From the NCBI GenBank assembly GCA_030649055.1, contig JAUSGH010000002.1:5357-69356 (forward strand): a stretch of DNA of 64,000 nt. The letters are read 5' to 3'. This DNA comes from a bacterium (GTDB lineage: Bacteria; Patescibacteriota; Minisyncoccia; UBA6257; JAUSGH01). The translations under genes and the position numbers were made by a program. Position 1 is the first letter of the stretch. Each line of letters begins with the position of its first letter. The notes beneath the pieces are model-generated. The model had not been told where the DNA came from and ran no database searches. It saw only the letters and a program-made list of their open reading frames with translations. Shown in pieces: positions 12,200 through 21,324 of this stretch.

Positions 12200-12225
12200 A
12201 ACCCCGCGAGCCGCAAACAGCCGCG

Positions 12226-12262
12226 AAGCCCCCGCCACCTCGGCGCGGGGCTTCTTCTTTTG
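12226..12262 (+). terminator. rho-independent terminator
   Basis: GAAGCCCCCGCC-acctc-GGCGCGGGGCTTC followed by TTCTTTTG. Confidence 0.55.
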
Positions 12263-12303
12263 AGACGCAAACAGGGAATCCATCGCTTATTAAAATTCCC
12301 GCC

Positions 12304-12340
12304 GTTATACCCTCATTCGCGCGAATGGTGGAATGATAAG
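12304..12340. promoter_or_regulatory. palindromic operator-like motif GTTATACCCTCATTCGCGCGAATGGTGGAATGATAA (copy upstream of the membrane-protein gene)
   Basis: The dyad CCCTCATTCGCGCGAATG(A)GGG lies 43 nt upstream of the ORF at 12383. Related copies at 12761-12828, 13121-13178 and 16145-16180. Confidence 0.5.
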
Positions 12341-12382
12341 TTTGACATCCGCGCCGCCATCAGTTATCATATACGACAGTAA

Positions 12383-12688
12383 GTGGCAATCATTCGGTTA
12401 TCACCTGTTGGAGAAAATCCGATGGACACCCTGATAATCCTCGGTTCCATCTTCGGATGGCTCGCCATTGGCTTCGCGCACACCTCGCTCCAGCTTCACG
12501 CAACCCATGCGGCATTCGGCCGCAAGGATCGGTTTGTGGAGACGATCTGCGGACCCATCGCGCAAGTACTGGACAATTACGCGATCCTCTACATTCTCCT
12601 AGGTCCCGCGGGTCTCCTGTTCACGGGAACGTGGATCAGGCTCCGCGCGACGGTATCCGAGCCGATACCTCAGCCGACTAACAAGTAG
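12383..12688 (+). CDS. small membrane protein, hypothetical
   Basis: 101 aa with two to three hydrophobic helices, followed by a terminator at 12709-12754. Confidence 0.45.
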   Translation: MAIIRLSPVGENPMDTLIILGSIFGWLAIGFAHTSLQLHATHAAFGRKDRFVETICGPIAQVLDNYAILYILLGPAGLLFTGTWIRLRATVSEPIPQPTNK

Positions 12689-12708
12689 CCCCATCCGTCC
12701 CTCGACCC

Positions 12709-12754
12709 ACCACCCCGCGGTAGCCCTAGGCTACTCGGGGTGGTCTTAATTTTG
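12709..12754 (+). terminator. rho-independent terminator
   Basis: ACCACCCCG-18 nt loop-CGGGGTGGT followed by CTTAATTTTG. Confidence 0.5.
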
Positions 12755-12760
12755 CCAAAA

Positions 12761-12828
12761 CCGTTATACTCTCATTCGCTCATTCGTGCGCCTGCCCGCC
12801 TCTGGAGGGAATGGTGGAATGATAAACA
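12761..12828. promoter_or_regulatory. second copy (interrupted) of the CTCATTCG..GGAATGGTGGAATGATAA motif
   Basis: CCGTTATACTCTCATTCGC...GGGAATGGTGGAATGATAAACAG. Confidence 0.4.
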
Positions 12829-12845
12829 GAAAAATATTACAACCA

Positions 12846-13139
12846 CTATAGCAACGAGATGATATATTTTGCGGCCGGCTCTTGCTGTGTCGCGAGCCGA
12901 TAAAACACCCGCGAGCTATGCTGTGTCTTTTCTATGATGTTCGCGGCGCTCAATACGCCAAGATGCTTTGACGTCGCCTTGAGTGAAAGATCGATTTCCT
13001 CGGCGATACTGCCAACGAACGCCGATTGGTGTCGCTTGATATACTCCACAATCGCAAGGCGACGTTTGTTTGCTAGCGCCTTGAGTACGCGTTCCAAATT
13101 TTTTATATTTTGCATACGTTTCACTATATACCATTCCAC
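12846..13139 (-). CDS. ArsR/SmtB-family winged-helix transcriptional regulator
   Basis: 97 aa. LKALANKRRLAIVEYIK...SQSAFVGSIAEEIDLSLKATSKHLGVLSAANII matches the ArsR HTH pattern. The ORF-track start is GTG at 13139; an internal ATG (MQNIK) at 13115 is an alternative. Confidence 0.65.
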   Translation of the reverse strand: MEWYIVKRMQNIKNLERVLKALANKRRLAIVEYIKRHQSAFVGSIAEEIDLSLKATSKHLGVLSAANIIEKTQHSSRVFYRLATQQEPAAKYIISLL

Positions 13140-13178
13140 CGCATTCTACCATTCGCGCGAATGAGGGTATACGTAACG
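13121..13178. promoter_or_regulatory. palindromic operator-like motif (reverse orientation) at the arsR-family gene start
   Basis: CCATTCGCGCGAATGAGGGTATACG contains the perfect palindrome CCCTCATTCGCGCGAATGAGGG. It overlaps or is immediately upstream of the regulator start. Confidence 0.5.
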
Positions 13179-13186
13179 CCGCGATA

Positions 13187-14464
13187 TTAATATTTACGCA
13201 ATCTGGAACGTAGTTCGCGATGGTACTTCACCGCAAACCGGTGTGCTTCGTCGCGGACGCGGATGAGCATATCGCGATTACGCGCGACTGCGGTGTGGAG
13301 TTCGTGCGGATAGAAAAAGTCGTTGCGCTTGCGCTCTGGCCCCTTAGCGATGCCGACAACCGGCACGGGCAGTTTCAACTCCGCAATCACCGCGCGCGCG
13401 GCATTCACCTGCGGCAATCCCCCGTCAATCAAAAGCAAATCAGGCATCGGCCACTCATCGTGCGTAAATCGCCGACGCAGCACTTCCGCAAGCATCCCGA
13501 CATCGTTTGAGCCGATAATTGTTTTAATCCGAAACTTGCGATATTCGTTTTTATCTGGCGCGCCATCGGTGAACACCACCATAGAACCGACCGCCGAAGT
13601 GCCGCTGACGTGCGAAATGTCGTAGCCCTCAACACGATGAAAGTCGTTTTCTCGCGTCGCTTTATCACCCAATACCGCAATGTCGTGAATATGCTGCAAC
13701 GCCGCGATGCGCCGACGGATAACGACGGCTTCCTCAAATTTTAATTCTCGCGACAACACCCGCATCTCGCGCGTCAGATCGCGCAAAATCTTTTGCTTTT
13801 TCCCCTCAAAAAACGCGATAAGCTGCCGGATGATTTTTTTATAATCGCGAGATGTGATGACGCCAGCGCACGTCCCGGGACAAAGGCCGATTTGATAATT
13901 AAAACACGGCTTCAGTTTCGGTTGTCCTTCGATAAACTCAGGAACTAATTTTTTTATTTTATTGCCTGAGCTTGTCGAAGGCGTACCTTTGTTTATCTCG
14001 TGACTACTCCACGGAAAAATCCTGCGCAGAATATGCAACGCCTCACGCAGTGACGCGGCGGAAGTAAACGGCCCGAAGCGGCCAAGCGGCCTATCGTGCG
14101 ACAGCGCCTCGCGCTCACGAAGCAACAACACGCGCGGAAATACCTCGCGGGTAATCACGACATAGAGAAAACTCCGGTCGTCCTTTTCCAGCACATTATA
14201 CTGCGGCTGATACTTCTTAATGAGCCGCGCCTCCAAAATCAGCGCCTCAATGACGGTGTCTGTTTGTTCAACATCAACCCTTGCCACTTCGCTAACCATT
14301 TTTGCAATCCGCAACTCCTGTGGCCTCTGGAAGTATGAGAGTACCCTCCTCTTCAAATTCGCCGCCTTCCCGACATACAGAACCCGCCCGTGCGTGTCCT
14401 TCATAAAGTAAACACCGGGAGTTAACGGAAGTTGTTTTTTTAATTTTTTGATGTCAATAGACAT
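13187..14464 (-). CDS. uvrC: excinuclease ABC subunit C (short form, no C-terminal HhH), with in-frame palindromic-element insertion
   Basis: GIY-YIG N-terminus (LPLTPGVYFMKDTHGRVLYVGKAANLKRRV), UVR-like region and RNase H-like endonuclease domain (GYDISHVSGTSAVGSMV). 425 aa. Residues [23 protein letters not shown] are encoded by repeat element 13924-13988. Confidence 0.9.
   Translation of the reverse strand: MSIDIKKLKKQLPLTPGVYFMKDTHGRVLYVGKAANLKRRVLSYFQRPQELRIAKMVSEVARVDVEQTDTVIEALILEARLIKKYQPQYNVLEKDDRSFLYVVITREVFPRVLLLREREALSHDRPLGRFGPFTSAASLREALHILRRIFPWSSHEINKGTPSTSSGNKIKKLVPEFIEGQPKLKPCFNYQIGLCPGTCAGVITSRDYKKIIRQLIAFFEGKKQKILRDLTREMRVLSRELKFEEAVVIRRRIAALQHIHDIAVLGDKATRENDFHRVEGYDISHVSGTSAVGSMVVFTDGAPDKNEYRKFRIKTIIGSNDVGMLAEVLRRRFTHDEWPMPDLLLIDGGLPQVNAARAVIAELKLPVPVVGIAKGPERKRNDFFYPHELHTAVARNRDMLIRVRDEAHRFAVKYHRELRSRLRKY
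13924..13988. repeat. RPE-like palindromic element (full, both arms) inserted in-frame in uvrC
   Basis: TCCTTCGATAAACTCAGGA...TTATTGCCTGAGCTTGTCGAAGGCGTACC. Confidence 0.8.
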
Positions 14465-14651
14465 AACACGGGCAGAATTTCTAATTTCAAATTACTAATT
14501 AATGACAAAATAAGCTACACGCCGGGGGTGGTGGGGAGAGATTTTTTGAGGTGAGGGAGGGTCATTATTATAAAAATTCAAAAGTAAAAATTTAAGAACT
14601 CTGTAAGAGAATACGAGAATTGGGTTGCTAACACGAACTAAATCCAAAGGC

Positions 14652-16127
14652 TCACTGCTGAGTCAATGCGACCCCTGTTACCCCATTAACGATTGCTATA
14701 ATCTCTCTCGTACCCGGCCCTGACGGGTAATAAACGAAGTTAGCGGACGGTTTTCCGTCAACGCTGCTCAAAAGAGTGGGGCAAGAAATATTTGGCCCCT
14801 GCATTTGCGCCCCAGAGTTACTGCTTATTCCGCCGCTACAAAAACGATTCAATTCCGGAAAACGATCGATATAGGCGGACCCGATAAACATCCCACCATC
14901 AGCAGCACTAATCGTAACCTTGTTGGCGGCAACTCTTTGGTCGAATTCAAAATAAAAAACTTCTATACTGCAAACCTTTTTATTGTCCATATCTATTCGA
15001 CAAGGTGATGGATTTACGATAACCGCCGCATAGTTTTTTGTTGATCTCGTCGAAAGAGTTCCGTGTGTTTTTGCAACTTCTATGCCAATAACAGATTCAA
15101 TCTCGTATGAATAGCTAGTATTGTGCTCTAAATTAGATACGTGAACTATATGGCGAGTAGATAATCCCGACTCGGAATCATAAATCTTCGGTGGTAAATT
15201 CCCGCTTGAAAGAAAAACTTTTGAATTAGTCGGTTTATTTGTCATCCATTCAAATAACATCGCATCAAATGTTGAGGTGGCATTTATTAATGTAATTTCG
15301 AGTGGTTTTACCGTGGTTGATGTAGTCACTGGAGTTGGTGTGACTACTTGCGGCGCAAAGGACGGGGTAGTAGATTTTGTTGGAACTATCGGTGCTACGA
15401 CCCTTTTCTTGTTCTCCTCTACTTCTTTTTTAATCAACTCGCTCTTCAGTTCTTCAACCTCCTGTTTTAATTTCTCAACTTCGGTTACTTGTTTTTCCTC
15501 ATCTTTTGCTTTCAGCTCCGCCACTTCCCGCCTCAATTTCTCAACCTCGCCTTTGAGTTCAACGATCTGTTTCGCCGCTTCTTCTTGGCCTTTTTTGCTT
15601 GCTTCAATGGCTTGCTCAATCGCCGCCCTCGCTTCCTCCGGAACCCTAATCAAAACAGCAGATAACACTTCCTGATTTCTTGAGGCACCATCCTCAATCG
15701 CGGCAAACAAACTTTCCGCTTGTCCTTTGTCCTTAACTTCTTTGGACTTTTCTGTCGCCAAGGCAACGTTACCTTCATAGTCCGCGATAGCCGCTTTGAC
15801 CGCGTCCGGATTTTTATCTCCTGCGATGGCTTCTACCTCTGCCAACCGCTCGTCGGCGTACTCTAGTGCCTTTTTAGCTTTCGCTTCGGGATTGAATGAA
15901 AAAAATAGAGCGATCTTTTCAGAAACCGTATCAAAAATATAGAAAAAACTGCCCGGCTTTACACCTGCGGTTGTGGCGGCGAAGGCAGAAACTGGCAGTA
16001 TCAAAGCAATAGACAAAATAAATAAATGTAAGATTGCCACGGGTACGACCGCGGTCGACCCTCGCAATGACGAAATAGAGGATGTTTTCATGAATATAAG
16101 CATATACCGTTTCTTGCTTTTTTGCAA
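14652..16127 (-). CDS. secreted/membrane-anchored coiled-coil protein, hypothetical
   Basis: 491 aa with an N-terminal hydrophobic segment, a long E/K-rich coiled coil (EVEKLRREVAELKAKDEEKQVTEVEKLKQEVEELK) and a Thr/Pro-rich linker. Palindromic motif copy 16145-16180 just upstream. Confidence 0.5.
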   Translation of the reverse strand: MQKSKKRYMLIFMKTSSISSLRGSTAVVPVAILHLFILSIALILPVSAFAATTAGVKPGSFFYIFDTVSEKIALFFSFNPEAKAKKALEYADERLAEVEAIAGDKNPDAVKAAIADYEGNVALATEKSKEVKDKGQAESLFAAIEDGASRNQEVLSAVLIRVPEEARAAIEQAIEASKKGQEEAAKQIVELKGEVEKLRREVAELKAKDEEKQVTEVEKLKQEVEELKSELIKKEVEENKKRVVAPIVPTKSTTPSFAPQVVTPTPVTTSTTVKPLEITLINATSTFDAMLFEWMTNKPTNSKVFLSSGNLPPKIYDSESGLSTRHIVHVSNLEHNTSYSYEIESVIGIEVAKTHGTLSTRSTKNYAAVIVNPSPCRIDMDNKKVCSIEVFYFEFDQRVAANKVTISAADGGMFIGSAYIDRFPELNRFCSGGISSNSGAQMQGPNISCPTLLSSVDGKPSANFVYYPSGPGTREIIAIVNGVTGVALTQQ

Positions 16128-16144
16128 CCGCCAGTCATTAAACT

Positions 16145-16180
16145 CGTTATACCCTCATTCGTGCGAATGAGTCCATGACC
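16145..16180. promoter_or_regulatory. palindromic operator-like motif upstream of the 14652..16127 gene
   Basis: CGTTATACCCTCATTCGTGCGAATGAG. Confidence 0.45.
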
Positions 16181-16451
16181 TAAAATCAAAAGCGCGCGGC
16201 GCTACATTATCATCACTCTCCTCCCCCAAGATGCAGAGCGCATGGAGGCAACCCTTCTTTTGAGCCAGCATGTTGGAGCGAGGGCAGCACTGCGCGAAGC
16301 GGAAAACCGCGACGTCGGAACAATGGCGCTGTATGAATCCCGAAACCGAGCAGTCGCCCGAGGCGACTGCTCGTGAAGGTTGAGTTCGCCTTGTTTCGGT
16401 AACGTGCGCGGTTTGTAGCGAGCAGCAGTGCTCCGAGCGGAAACCGCTGGA
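16180..16451. other. conserved multi-hairpin element, copy 2 of 3
   Basis: Shares CGACGTCGGAACAATGGCGCTGTATGAATCCCG ... GAAGGTTGAGTTCGCCTTGTTTCGGTAAC. The central hairpin is replaced by GAGCAGTCGCC/GGCGACTGCTC and the 5' hairpin by GCGCG/CGGCGC. Confidence 0.6.
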
Positions 16452-16509
16452 GAGAAAGGAGGGTTGCCGACAGAGACAGAGATCCTTCGCTTCACTCAGG
16501 ATGACATAC

Positions 16510-19125
16510 CTAGCGCAGCACTTTCCTCAAATATTCTCCCGTAAAACTCCCCTTTGCCCTCGCAATAGTTTCCGGAGTGCCGACCGCCACCACCTCCCCT
16601 CCCTTCTCTCCTCCCTCCGGCCCCAAATCAATCACCCAATCCGCGGTTTTGATGACGTCCAGGTTGTGCTCAATAACGACAACCGTGTTGCCGCGATCCA
16701 CGAGCCGATGCAGAATCTTCAAAAGATTTTCAATGTCGGCGAAATGCAATCCCGTTGTCGGCTCATCCAACAAGTACAATGTGCGGCCGGTGTCGCGCTT
16801 CGCGAGTTCCGTAGAAAGTTTGATGCGCTGGGCTTCGCCGCCGGAAAGCGTTGTGGCGCTCTGCCCCAACCGTAAGTATCCCAGCCCCACTTCGTTCACA
16901 ATCTTCAACCGGTCATACACCCACGGAATGTCGCGAAAAAACACCACCGCCTCCTCCACCGTCATCTGCAGAATGTCGTAGATATTTTTGCCTTTGTAGT
17001 CCACCTCCAACGTTTCGCGGTCAAAACGTTTTCCTTTACACACATCGCACTGCACAAACACCGTCGGCAAAAAATGCATTTCAATCGCAATCGTGCCGTT
17101 GCCCTCGCAATGTTCACACCGCCCGCCGGGCACGTTGAAACTAAACCTTCCGACTTTCCACCCCCTTATACGGGCCTCCGCCGTTGAAGCAAAAAGATCG
17201 CGGATATAACTCCACGCGCCGATGTAGGTCGCGGGGTTTGACCGCGGCGTGCGGCCGATTGCTCCCTGGTCAATGGAGATGATGTTATTCAAGTATTCCA
17301 AGCCGAGAATGGCATTCAATGGATGTTTGTAGCCCTTCGACTCCCCGCCCGCTGGCGGTTCGCTCAGGGAATAATGATTAAACTTACGCGAAAGCGTTTT
17401 CTCCAGCACGTCATACACGAGTGTGCTTTTGCCCGAACCGGAAACGCCCGTCACCGCCACAAAACGCCGCAATGGGATGTCCACGTTGATATTTTTTAAG
17501 TTATTCGCCGAGGCGCCGCGGATTTTGAGCATGTCCCTATCAATCATTCGGCGCTTTTGCGGCACCGGAATTTTTTTATCGCCGCGGAGATAATCCACGG
17601 TCAATGACTTGCCCTTCGGCGTTCCTTTGCCGAGCACTTCTTTAAGCGGCCCCGCAACCACGATATTGCCGCCGTGTACTCCGGCAGCAGGGCCGATGTC
17701 CACCAAATAATCCGCCGTACGGATAGTGTCCTCGTCGTGTTCAACAACAATGACGGTATTCCCCAGATCGCGCAGTTGCTTTAAGGTCGCGAGCAGCTTA
17801 TCGTTATCGCGCTGATGCAGACCGATGGTCGGCTCGTCCAAAATATAGAGCGTGCCCACCAGCCGCGATCCGATCTGCGAAGCCAGCCGGATGCGCTGCG
17901 ACTCCCCTCCCGAGAGCGTTCCGGCTCTGCGGTCCAACGTCAGATAATCTAACCCCACATCCAACATAAATTTCAGCCGATTTCTGATTTCTTTAAGCGG
18001 CACTTCCGCGATTTCCGCCGCCGCTTTTTTTACCTTATTACCCAACAGATCAAAAAAATCGTACGCATGGCCCACGGAAAGCCCCGTAAGGTCGGCGATG
18101 TTTTTATTGTTGATGAGCACGTTCAGCGCCTCCGGCTTCAGACGTTTGCCTTTGCATTGCGGACAAATCTCTTCGGACCACACATCCACTACCCCCAAAC
18201 CGTGGCACGCCTCGCAGGCGCCATATGGGCTGTTAAATGAAAAGAGCCGCGGCTCAATTTCCGGAAACGCGAAATTGTCCTTCGGGCATGAAAACTTTGA
18301 GGAGAGCGTGAATTCTTTTTCTCCGATGATAAACGTCGCGACATCGTTGCCGTACTTCAAAGCGCTTTCCACCGCTTCCGCAAGCCGCGCGCGCACGTCT
18401 TTGACGCCGAAGTTTAATCCGGCGGGCATGTGGTCAACAATAAGCTCAATCGTGTGCTGTTTATACCGCGAAAGTTCAATGCGGCTGTGGAGCGACAATA
18501 TTTTCCCGTCAACGCGCACCTCCCCGAAACCGCCGTTCAAAAAGTCATAGAGCAGTTGATAATATTCCCCCTTGCGTCCAATGACCGCCGGAGCGAGCAC
18601 TATAATCTCTTGCTTGGCAGCGGTAGCCCCTCGACTGTGCTCGGGGACTATTTTATCGTTACTCCCTGAGCTTGTCGAAGGGTTACCTTTACTCGCAACT
18701 TCGATGACGGTATCAACAATTTCCTCCGGCGTCATTTTGCGGATTTCGTCTCCGCACGTCGGACAATACGGCTTGCCGATACGGGCAAACAGCACGCGGA
18801 GGTAGTCATAGATTTCCGTGAGCGTCGCGACGGTTGAGCGCGGATTGCCGGAATGGCTTTTCTGGTCAATAGAAATGGCAGGAGAGAGTCCCTCAATTTC
18901 ATCAACGTCCGGCTTATCCATTTTTCCCAAAAACTGCCGCGCGTACGCGGAAAGCGACTCTATGTAGCGCCGCTGACCCTCGGCAAAAATAGTGTCAAAA
19001 GCAAGCGATGACTTCCCCGAACCGGAAAGTCCCGTGAAGACGATTAAACTGTTACGCGGCAGCTCAAGAGAAATATTCTTGAGATTATGCTCGCGGGCGC
19101 CTTTGATAATGATTTTGTCGTTCAT
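16510..19125 (-). CDS. uvrA: excinuclease ABC subunit A with in-frame palindromic-element insertion
   Basis: 871 aa with two ABC ATPase modules ([15 protein letters not shown] and [11 protein letters not shown]), LSGGEAQR signatures and zinc-finger Cys clusters. Residues [23 protein letters not shown] are encoded by element 18625-18688. Confidence 0.95.
18625..18688. repeat. RPE-like palindromic element (full) inserted in-frame in uvrA
   Basis: CCCCTCGACTGTGCTCGGGGA...TTACTCCCTGAGCTTGTCGAAGGGTTACC. Confidence 0.8.
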
Positions 19126-19137
19126 GGGTTATTGTAA

Positions 19138-19216
19138 CGCTTCGACTTCGGTCCGACGGACATCGGACCTTCGCTCAGCGAATAAAACTTTATTGCCTGA
19201 GTTTATCGAAGGCTTA
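19138..19216. repeat. RPE-like palindromic element, intergenic uvrA-uvrB
   Basis: CTTCGACTTCG...GCTCAGCGAATAAAACTTTATTGCCTGAGTTTATCGAAGGCTTACC. Confidence 0.7.
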
Positions 19217-19218
19217 CC

Positions 19219-21324
19219 TTATTTTTTATCTTTCGTTTTTCGCCTCAACAAGTGTATTTCATCCCTCAATATCGCCGCGAGTTCAAAGTCCAATCGTTTT
19301 GACGCGTCCTTCATCTGTCTCATTTTTTCGGCAATGATGCGGTCAAGCGACCCTTGTTTCATTTTTGTCGCCGCGCCGAGCGCCGAAAATTCCGTTTTCA
19401 ATACTTCGGCGACTTCCTTCTCCCGTTTGACGTCAAACGCCGCGACAATGTCGTGGATTGCTTTGATGATGGTCTTCGGCGTGATGCCATGCGCCTTATT
19501 CCACGCAAGCTGGATATTCCGCCGGCGGTTGGTTTCAGAAATCGCGCGCGTGAGCGACCCGGTCATCACGTCGGCATACAGTACCACCTGGCCGTTCACG
19601 TTGCGCGCCGCGCGGCCGATGGTTTGGATGAGCGAAGTTTCACTCCGCAAAAATCCCTCTTTGTCGGCGTCAAGAATGGCAACGAGCGACACCTCCGGCA
19701 AGTCCAATCCTTCGCGCAACAGGTTCACGCCCACAAGCACGTCATAGTTGCCGCGGCGAAAATCTGAAAGAATCGTGATGCGGTCAATGGTCAGCACGTC
19801 GCTGTGCACATAATTCACCTTGATTTTCAACTCCTGCAAATACGCCGTGAGATCTTCCGCCATTTTTTTGGTGAGCGTGGTCACGAGCGTGCGTTCCTTC
19901 TTCTTCACGCGATCTTTGATGCGGGAAATTAAATCATCTATCTGACTAAGCGGTTGTCCCTCGACATGCTCGGGAACTATTTTATTTTTATTGCCTGAGC
20001 TTGTCGAAGGCCTACCGCCACCACTGACCGGGCGCACAATAATTTCCGGGTCTACCAGTCCCGTCGGCCGAATAATTTGTTCCACGATCTGCCCGCTCGC
20101 CAAGCTGCGTTCCAGTTCATAACCGCTTGGCGTTGCCGAGGTATAGATCGCCTGCGGCATACGCGCCTCAAACTCGGTGAACTTGAGCGGCCGGTTGTCC
20201 GCCGCACTAGGCAGACGAAAACCGAACTCAATAAGCGTTTTCTTTCGCGCCGCATCGCCCTCCGACATTCCGCGAATCTGCGGCACCGTCACGTGGCTTT
20301 CATCAATCACCATCAGGTAATCCGGCGCGCCGTCTTCGGTAACGGGAAAATACGAAAGCAGCGTATCCGGCGGCTCGCCTGCCGCGCGACCCGAAAGATG
20401 CCGAGAATAATTCTCAATGCCGTGGCAGTAGCCGATTTCTTTCATCATCGCCACGTCATAGCGCGTGCGGCGTTCCAACCGCTCCGCCTCCAGCAATTTT
20501 CCGTTTTGCTCAAAATAATGCAACCGCTCGCGGAGCTCCGCTTTAATCACCTTCATCGCGCGCGTTTTTTCCGGTCCCAGCGTGACGAAATGTTTTGCCG
20601 GAAATACATAAACCTCCGGCACTTCCTCGCGGCTACCGAATCCCTTCACAGGATCCACCGCAAAAATATGCGAGATTACGCCATCGTGAATATCAAACCG
20701 ATACAACAGATCCTGATCCGGCGCCATCATTTCCCACTGGTCGCCGCGCACGCGGAATGTGCCACGCGTGAGGTCCGCATTCGTGCGCGAAAACTGCATC
20801 GCGACCAACTTTTTCATAAGCTCCGCGCGCGTCACCGCATCACCCACTTTGAAATGCAGCATCTGTGATTCATACGCCTCCGGCGCGCCCAAGCCGTAAA
20901 TACACGACACCGACGCCACCACAATCACATCGCGTCGCGTGAGTAACGCCGCGGTTGCCGCGTGGCGCAGTTTATCAATCTCGTCGTTAATCATCGCTTC
21001 TTTATCAATGTAGGTGTCCGTCACCGGCAAATACGCCTCCGGCTGGTAGTAGTCATAATAGGACACGAAATAGTGCACAGAATTTTTCGGAAAAAACTCG
21101 CGATACTCGTTGCACAGCTGGGCGGCAAGGGTTTTATTCGGCGCAATGACGAGCGTCGGTTTTTGTACCGCCTGGATGACATTCGCGACGGTAAATGTTT
21201 TGCCGGAACCCGTGACGCCGAGAAGTGTCTGGTGCTTCATACCTTTCTTCAAACCAGAAACAAGCCACTCGATGGCTTTCGGCTGGTCCCCCGCGGGCAT
21301 AAAATTGGATTGCAACTTGAACAT
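19219..21324 (-). CDS. uvrB: excinuclease ABC subunit B with in-frame palindromic-element insertion
   Basis: 701 aa. [10 protein letters not shown] helicase motif I, DESH, beta-hairpin region and C-terminal UVR domain. Residues [22 protein letters not shown] are encoded by element 19955-20017, between the IVRP and QIDDL motifs. Confidence 0.95.
19955..20017. repeat. RPE-like palindromic element (full) inserted in-frame in uvrB
   Basis: TCCCTCGACATGCTCGGGAAC...TTATTGCCTGAGCTTGTCGAAGGCCTACC. Confidence 0.8.

Follow-up and report, generated by a model that had tools for sequence, protein, structure and literature searches.

A 64,000-nucleotide (nt) stretch of a genome of the Patescibacteria (contig JAUSGH010000002.1 of assembly GCA_030649055.1, positions 5,357 to 69,356 of the forward strand; hereafter the window, in whose own numbering positions are given) carries, between 12304 and 16180, several copies of a palindromic motif around a gene, arsR, for a small regulator of the ArsR/SmtB family. 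The locus raises the question of whether this motif is the binding site of the adjacent regulator, a site for another factor, a dispersed repeat or a junction at which genes are exchanged. A preliminary description of the sequence had proposed an operator of the regulator within a small autoregulated regulon. Our results support this proposal through the site found upstream of arsR in essentially all of 82 related loci, its 12-2-12 dyad form, the intergenic copies pointing to gene starts, and a covariation between the site and the wing of the protein. We assign a probability of about 0.78 to the motif being the operator of the adjacent 89-amino-acid (aa) regulator, which would be autoregulated, would probably act as a repressor, and would govern a small regulon of highly variable content. 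Patescibacteria (the candidate phyla radiation) are uncultured bacteria with tiny genomes and few regulators, and to our knowledge almost nothing is known of their transcriptional control. Neither the motif nor the regulator was found in the literature on Patescibacteria, and the regulator-operator pair is, as far as these searches reach, undescribed.

Three intact copies of the motif (c1, c3, and c4) and one split copy (c2) were identified, all within 12304-16180 and at the places where the preliminary description had put its four copies, and the remaining 60 kilobases (kb) of the window contained none. The 18-nt core CCCTCATTCGCGCGAATG, with up to three mismatches allowed, matched solely at 12310, 13150, and 16152 in the 64 kb, where 0.07 matches are expected from shuffled sequences; both strands match this core because it is palindromic. 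Additionally, a weight matrix built from the 82 related loci returned these three sites alone down to 8 bits, with scores of 37.5 bits for c1, 35.0 bits for c3, and 27.7 bits for c4. Copy c1 (12304..12340, plus strand, GTTATACCCTCATTCGCGCGAATGGTGGAATGATAA, with its 37.5 bits at 12308-12337) lies 3' of the terminator of the upstream gene and directly 5' of the -35 element of a promoter for a membrane-protein gene. Copy c3 (13140..13173, minus strand), the candidate autoregulatory site, lies upstream of arsR, has orthologous sites in 82/82 loci, and is followed by an additional GGTGGAATG repeat at 13131-13139. Copy c4 (16146..16179, minus strand) reads CTCATTCG-CA-CGAATGAG on the minus strand (CTCATTCG-TG-CGAATGAG in the other reading), scores better on that strand, which is the strand of the gene that it precedes, and lies 43 nt upstream of the start of a gene for a DUF5667 protein. 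The dyad CCCTCATTCG-CG-CGAATGAGGG had been thought perfect in the copy at the regulator, whereas c3 reads CCCTCATTCG-CG-CGAATGGTAG and is symmetric only over 6-2-6, the most symmetric copy being c4.

Copy c2 (12763..12825, plus strand) is a split operator, with a left half at 12763-12778 and a right half at 12809-12825 that equals c1 at 17/17 bases. The 30 nt between the halves (12779-12808) comprise an 8-nt duplication of CTCATTCG and a GC-rich mini-hairpin, CCTGCCCGCCTCTGGAGG. It lies between two convergent genes, is directed into the 3' end of arsR, and is followed by no gene that it could control. The best explanation of c2 would be an operator that decayed through a short GC-rich insertion.

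The arsR gene (12846..13115, minus strand) encodes a protein of 89 aa that is 100% identical to P0001 and, according to Pfam, consists of a helix-turn-helix domain only, without a LexA/S24 peptidase domain. The winged-helix domain, and with it the family named in the preliminary description, was confirmed by Pfam HTH_20 (9.9e-09) and HTH_5 (1.1e-06), both above their cutoffs, by NCBIfam NF033788 (score 62.3, cutoff 55), and by a family profile that matched 29 ArsR-family chains in the PDB. The nearest solved structures were HlyU (3jth/4k2e, E = 6e-13), Lmo1102, NolR (4omy), Rv2034, CzrA, and BigR; SmtB was also matched. In an alignment of 30 homologues (49-80% identity to the regulator), the invariant columns were E8, K12, A15, N16, R18, R19, I41, L43, S44, K46, T48, S49, H51, L52, and Y72. 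The recognition helix (LS-K-TSKHL, with S44, K46, T48, S49, H51, and L52) was therefore among the invariant parts of the protein, in parallel to the invariant core of the DNA site described below.

The preliminary description had implied a metal or oxidant as the inducer. None of the metal-ligand residues of the family (Cys in alpha3/alpha3N; Asp, His, or Glu in alpha5) was conserved in the 30 homologues, the only conserved His being that of the recognition helix; no Cys was conserved, and the C-terminal helix was short and variable. Since no Cys/His/Asp/Glu sensor site is conserved, such an inducer is unlikely. In addition, no gene for metal efflux or resistance occurred among the 25 most frequent of 139 Pfam families in neighbours and targets. 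The regulator is thus unlikely to be a classical metal sensor, as judged from its residues and gene context.

A scan of species-representative genomes found at least 476 loci encoding a relative of the regulator, 80 of which were retrieved; two closer relatives added by protein identity brought the set to 82 related loci (individual loci are cited by numbers with the prefix L). The homologues were confined to metagenome-assembled genomes (MAGs) of the Patescibacteria type. Candidate complete or near-complete genomes with the regulator are OY970216.1 (804,691 bp) and JAHFLF010000001.1 (601,890 bp), and a 100% identical contig is present in SRR13727527. The region upstream of arsR bore the same element of ~30 base pairs (bp) in 82/82 loci, with the consensus TTCTCTAATTCG-CG-CGAATGGTAGAATA. 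When the 160 nt upstream of arsR were scored, the best site reached at least 25 bits in 74 of the 82 loci, these being from different species, and the eight loci below this score retained the core ATTCGNNCGAAT, a core with one mismatch, or a core split by an insertion. Perfect 12-2-12 palindromes were found upstream of arsR in L028 and L046. Across 327 unique sites, conservation was limited to ~32 nt. The element has an invariant inner dyad, ATTCG-NN-CGAAT, and outer half-sites, (A)TTCT and (A)GAAT, 8 bp away; this 12-2-12 form is typical of ArsR/SmtB operators.

A second site stood directly after arsR in most loci and was inverted in the closest relatives of the window, L002 and L006, as c2 is. 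It began exactly 5 nt before the arsR stop codon in 26 of 69 loci, where the TAA stop is the TAA of CTAATTCG. The stop codon thereby lies in the next operator (..TTCTC-TAA-TTCG..), as seen in L017, L021, L022, L053, L064, L066, and 20 more, and the last codons of the regulator are DNA of the left arm. Some genomes had a second arsR paralogue within 1-3 kb of the first, each with its own operator copies (L009, 6815-7090; L015, 3053-3313).

Protein and site also varied together. The base 5' of ATTCG was A in 56 loci, C in 11 (including the lineage of the window), and T in 14. At the variable residue of the wing (RS-[L/S]-QMFY), 9 of the 11 C loci had Ser and 50 of the 56 A loci had Leu, counted without correction for phylogeny. 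Pairs of Ser and C were spread over at least five distinct clusters in a dendrogram of the proteins. Direct readout of the base by the ArsR wing is what would produce such Ser/C and Leu/A covariation.

These features also bear on the idea that the motif is recognised by some other factor, such as an alternative sigma factor or a different regulator, with arsR as merely one conserved member of its regulon. In favour of this idea, the right arm, (T/G)NGAAT, sometimes serves as a promoter hexamer: in L022, L027, L041, and L066, TGGTAGAAT within the right arm forms an extended -10 element 6-9 nt before the start codon. A function of the motif as the promoter itself was considered and rejected, as the true -10-like form, TAGAAT, occupied the right arm in only ~16% of sites, GCGAAT and GAGAAT being the commonest. 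Because the -10-like form is rare, the right arm appears to be part of the binding site and to double as a -10 element in a subset only. Furthermore, the dyad symmetry suits a winged-helix protein that forms dimers, as well as the 12-2-12 pattern known from the ArsR family, the wing residue of ArsR covaries with the site, and two sites are tightly linked to every arsR gene, as autoregulation predicts. We therefore regard recognition by another factor as improbable.

The distribution of the sites was examined to distinguish a regulon from a repeat. A scan of metagenomes with the consensus, made independently of arsR, yielded at least 120 stretches and 112 sites with enough flanking sequence, 38 of which adjoined arsR and 74 of which did not. 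Among 303 sites away from contig edges, 192 had a co-oriented gene start within 200 nt, usually at 0-60 nt, and 23 had a start on the opposite strand alone; ~15% lay inside long open reading frames (ORFs), in genomes that are mostly coding. Site density per 10 kb was 63 within 150 nt of arsR, then 2.9, 1.4, and 0.8 out to 2 kb, and ~0.2 beyond, corresponding to a ~300-fold enrichment beside arsR. The window agrees with this pattern, as its four sites share 4 kb and the remaining 60 kb are free of them. The preliminary description had cautioned that a motif frequent throughout the genome and without bias toward promoters would be just another dispersed repeat; in the relatives we found instead ~0.2 sites per 10 kb away from arsR, and a strong bias of position and orientation.

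A dispersed palindromic repeat of the REP (repetitive extragenic palindrome) or MITE (miniature inverted-repeat transposable element) type without a regulatory role would likewise be palindromic, intergenic, and present in several copies per genome, as the motif is. Such elements are expected in many copies, without promoter bias and with a stable hairpin, and the motif had none of these properties. Its copy number is low and concentrated at arsR, its orientation is strongly biased toward gene starts, no conserved body extends beyond ~32 nt, and its position relative to one gene is constant across very divergent genomes. The z-scores of single-stranded DNA folds of the copies against shuffled sequences were -0.15, 0.00, and +0.93, and c4 alone reached -2.45. 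A hairpin or REP function was rejected on the ground that the folds, except that of c4, were no stabler than shuffled ones, and a duplex protein-binding site is therefore favoured over a hairpin element. A repeat of this type is accordingly a very remote prospect. Two further origins were discarded: a phage or mobile element, by 0 matches to the motif in viral contigs, and a structured RNA, by the lack of any Rfam match at gathering thresholds in the whole window (12200-16560 at E <=5 gave one chance-level match) and of any tRNA or tmRNA in the structured-RNA check.

Given an operator of the ArsR-family regulator, the position of the sites relative to promoters points to how it might act. At most sites the outer GAAT is followed 13-15 nt later by a -10-like hexamer, and the site therefore covers the -35 region, itself a poor one. 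Both this layout and that of the extended -10 subset would let a bound dimer exclude RNA polymerase, which makes repression with autoregulation the most likely mode; as the sign of regulation, repression is favoured with some reserve. According to this model, one or two dimers of the regulator would probably bind the ~30-bp site of the 12-2-12 type, which lies on or just upstream of the -35 element of promoters with a weak -35 or an extended -10, and would there block RNA polymerase. The regulator would control its own, probably leaderless, gene via c3, the gene of an 88-aa membrane protein via c1, and the DUF5667 gene, possibly together with uvrC, via c4. Across the Patescibacteria, the pair of regulator and site would constitute a small regulon whose targets cluster by the regulator gene and differ greatly between genomes.

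Several points weigh against this interpretation. At c1, the whole of the clear sigma-70 promoter is downstream of the site, whose dyad centre is near -57, and activation therefore fits as well as repression there. The wing covariation, besides being uncorrected for phylogeny, has exceptions in L016, L017, L010, L039, L059, and L079. From the density profile, a genome would have very roughly 10-25 sites, concentrated near the regulator gene; this number is extrapolated from 12-kb loci. Finally, sites of 40-48 bits are near-identical in distant genomes before unrelated genes, which is above typical transcription-factor regulons; such a strength may point to some further constraint or to sites having been copied.

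The genes behind the sites were highly diverse, with 139 Pfam families among 145 proteins, so that across the family the targets go beyond the three genes (the regulator gene and two neighbours) to which the preliminary description had confined the regulon. Recurring families were NUDIX (5), GIY-YIG (4), HAD (3), and the Mur-ligase C-terminal domain (3), followed by UvrC, MPG glycosylase, TatD, PIF1, PD-(D/E)XK, TGT, Sua5, M24 peptidase, and YchF with 2 each. Single targets, recognised by N-terminal sequence and not by a family search, included DinB, RarA, a DnaQ-like exonuclease, Fpg, UDG, Ogt, HsdR, Fic, and antitoxins. The largest group, with 14 members, was a Cys-rich zinc-ribbon protein of 570-620 aa without a Pfam or NCBIfam family. 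This protein starts with CQNCK..F..FY.K..VP.PT.CP.CR.QRR, often occurs as tandem paralogues, and has no homologue in the window; it was found in L014, L032, L053, L058, L083 (6287-7990), L089, L094, L130, L146, L167, and L173.

Repair-related targets included uvrC (behind a site also in L006 and L038), dinB, rarA, mpg, fpg, udg, ogt, and nucleases of the GIY-YIG and PD-(D/E)XK types. By eye, genes for repair or modification of nucleic acids are over-represented among the targets, yet they are a minority. A LexA-based DNA-damage network is described for Patescibacteria, according to the cited passage (Sanchez-Osuna, Barbe and Erill 2017, reference 9 in PMC8565304). Since repair genes are a minority and this network is known, we do not call the targets an SOS regulon; a role of the regulator as an SOS-like master regulator of DNA repair was rejected and repair is kept as a partial theme. 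The likeness to the LexA/SOS regulon lies in an autoregulated repressor with a dispersed palindromic box and several DNA-repair targets, whereas the regulator here lacks the LexA/S24 peptidase domain and most targets are unrelated to repair.

The diversity of the targets also fits a different account, in which the sites are mainly junctions of recombination or insertion, and single genes with their own site are shuffled as cassettes around arsR at the palindromic core. Regulation would then be secondary or additional, and the account is compatible with an operator. Besides the hypervariable genes, the near-identity of sites at 40-48 bits, the fall of site density with distance from arsR, and the arsR stop codon inside the next site in 26 of 69 loci speak for it. 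Insertions into the operator do so as well: c2 was split after ATTCGTGCG by CCTGCCCGCC-TCT-GGAGG, very similar GC-rich mini-hairpins interrupted the operator at this point in at least eight further loci of different organisms, and CCTGCCCGCC occurred 18 times in 1.59 Mb, 7 of these copies being inside operators. The mini-hairpin, CCTG[CT]C[CT]GCC-loop-GG[AC]GGG, measures 17-30 nt and is inserted after ATTCGNGCG in unrelated genomes (window 12779-12808, L102, L095 at 4996, L038 at 3709, L072 at 2376, L153, L024 at 7317, and L030); L153 and L024 have a second mini-hairpin in the left half of the operator.

Copy c4 provides a further argument of this kind. Its left arm on the minus strand equals the arsR-upstream site of L002 (5926-5978) and L006 (5925-5977) over 23 nt, and its other arm equals the left arm of c1 over 17 nt. 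In L006 the order is uvrB-uvrA-[site]-arsR-[site]-uvrC, and a chimera of two left arms fits the excision of an arsR cassette from such an arrangement. With this gene order, c4 looks like a scar, as if the arsR unit had been recombined out at the palindromic core between uvrA and uvrC and re-inserted after uvrC; an earlier rearrangement at the operator core may thus have brought arsR to its present place. The chimeric c4, the hairpin insertions, and the hypervariable targets therefore allow a shuffling of cassettes to be considered. Against it, no recombinase gene was consistently nearby and no integrase family occurred among the 25 families most often found behind the sites, the screen covering these families and not every gene of the loci. 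Comparison of near-identical loci gave 12 informative internal breakpoints in all, of which only 2 fell at a site, and viral contigs gave no matches. Moreover, gene conversion, or selection that favours a symmetric operator, can also produce chimeric arms, and regulation alone explains the orientation bias toward gene starts. It is therefore unlikely, on our estimate, that the sites are mainly such junctions. We give the same small chance to the related view that operator copies are also junctions of a cassette-like system, moving operator-bearing genes in and out of a regulator-centred accessory island, with a fragile core that attracts GC-hairpin insertions. If this were true, Patescibacteria with their small genomes would gain genes in an integron-like manner, already wired to one regulator. 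The likeness to integron attC arrays lies in imperfect palindromes that bound single, diverse genes clustered by one conserved gene, whereas the sites here lie upstream of genes, overlap promoters, and have neither the attC architecture nor a stable single-strand fold.

As an operator-regulator pair, the system resembles known members of the ArsR family in part. Like the autorepressors SmtB, CzrA, and CadC, the regulator has the fold of a small winged-helix dimer, with sequence matches to 1r1t, 1r1u, and 1u2w, and has, at its own promoter or beside it, an imperfect inverted repeat of the 12-2-12 form, which would make it autoregulated as well. Unlike them, it lacks conserved residues of the alpha3N or alpha5 metal sites and a linked gene for metal efflux or resistance, and its regulon is dispersed and variable, as opposed to a single operon. 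The sites of SmtB and CzrA are of the TGAA/TTCA type, to which ATTCG-NN-CGAAT is unrelated. HlyU of Vibrio, NolR of Sinorhizobium, PagR, SdpR, and BigR are, like the regulator, proteins of ~90-100 aa without metal sites; they bind palindromes and control several promoters, as the regulator is predicted to do. HlyU acts as an anti-silencer or activator, SdpR needs a membrane partner, and BigR uses a Cys pair, of which the regulator family here has no counterpart in a conserved Cys. The SdpR model NF033789 scored 43.6 against a cutoff of 100, and the BigR model was also below its cutoff; the 88-aa membrane protein was missing from the arsR neighbourhoods of L002 and L006, which leaves no conserved SdpI-like partner there. 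We know of no member of the HlyU, NolR, PagR, SdpR, or BigR type from Patescibacteria, nor of one with this operator.

Gene starts in the window were revised, because the preliminary description had used the longest ORFs. The regulator starts at the ATG at 13115 (89 aa), the membrane protein at the ATG at 12422 (88 aa, not 101), and the DUF5667 protein at the ATG at 16103 (483 aa, not 491). The 97-aa ORF product of the regulator had no exact database record, as is expected if the downstream ATG is the true start. With this start, c3 lies 25-58 nt upstream of the gene and not at or over its start, as had been thought. An extended -10 element of arsR, TGGTATATAGT, was read from the sequence at 13123..13133 (minus strand); since only 7-9 nt separate its end from the ATG, the arsR mRNA may be leaderless or nearly so. 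A -10 box 6-9 nt before the ATG, without a Shine-Dalgarno sequence, was seen in the window (13113-13133, minus strand) and also in L008, L009, L015, and L021, suggesting that a leaderless mRNA for this regulator may be clade-wide.

On the plus strand, the order toward arsR is a terminator-like site (12238..12250), c1, a sigma-70-type promoter (TTGACA-17-TATCAT, 12342..12370, 11/12 consensus matches), the membrane-protein gene (12422..12688), and a terminator-like hairpin (12728..12746) between this gene and the convergent arsR. The membrane-protein gene, the candidate target of c1, has an ATG start with a GGAGA Shine-Dalgarno sequence, its 88 aa follow the gene call on L001, and its product had no match in Pfam or NCBIfam. 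Along the minus strand come, in this order, a 701-aa ORF (19219..21324) that is probably uvrB, then uvrA (16510..19125), a GC-rich spacer of 300 nt, a terminator-like hairpin (16191..16203), c4, the DUF5667 gene (14652..16103), uvrC (13187..14464; Pfam GIY-YIG, UVR, and UvrC_RNaseH_dom), c3, arsR, and c2. The DUF5667 gene, the candidate target of c4, encodes a protein with a signal peptide and a coiled coil (Pfam DUF5667, E = 1.8e-20). The hairpin at 16191-16203 closes the uvrA transcript just upstream of c4, and c4 therefore opens a new transcription unit; from the local order of genes and terminators, c1, c3, and c4 each head one. Transcription from the c4-controlled promoter possibly continues from the DUF5667 gene into uvrC, and the 187-nt gap between these two genes means that uvrC may have its own promoter.

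The genes uvrA, uvrC, and probably uvrB thus cluster around arsR (13187-21324, minus strand), and this linkage to nucleotide-excision-repair genes is kept in the sub-lineage of the window (L006, uvrB-uvrA-arsR-uvrC) and not in L002. The spacer between the uvrA stop and the hairpin (16204-16509, minus strand) contains a long-range inverted repeat, 16247-16269/16446-16468, folds better than shuffled sequences (z = -2.76), and has no Rfam match; the only ORF in it does not look coding. The spacer may represent a structured 3' untranslated region or an undescribed small RNA.

Taken together, the pair of regulator and operator, present in at least 476 species-representative genomes with a site of ~30 bp and more than 40 bits, would be an easily recognised module of the whole clade, notable also for the odd behaviour of its sites. 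With this site, promoters and small regulons could be annotated straight from MAG sequences, and the pair would offer a concrete system for work in vitro. In addition, the great variability of the targets, many of which act on nucleic acids, and their clustering by the regulator gene suggest a regulated island of accessory genes in Patescibacteria, which would be of wider interest if true.

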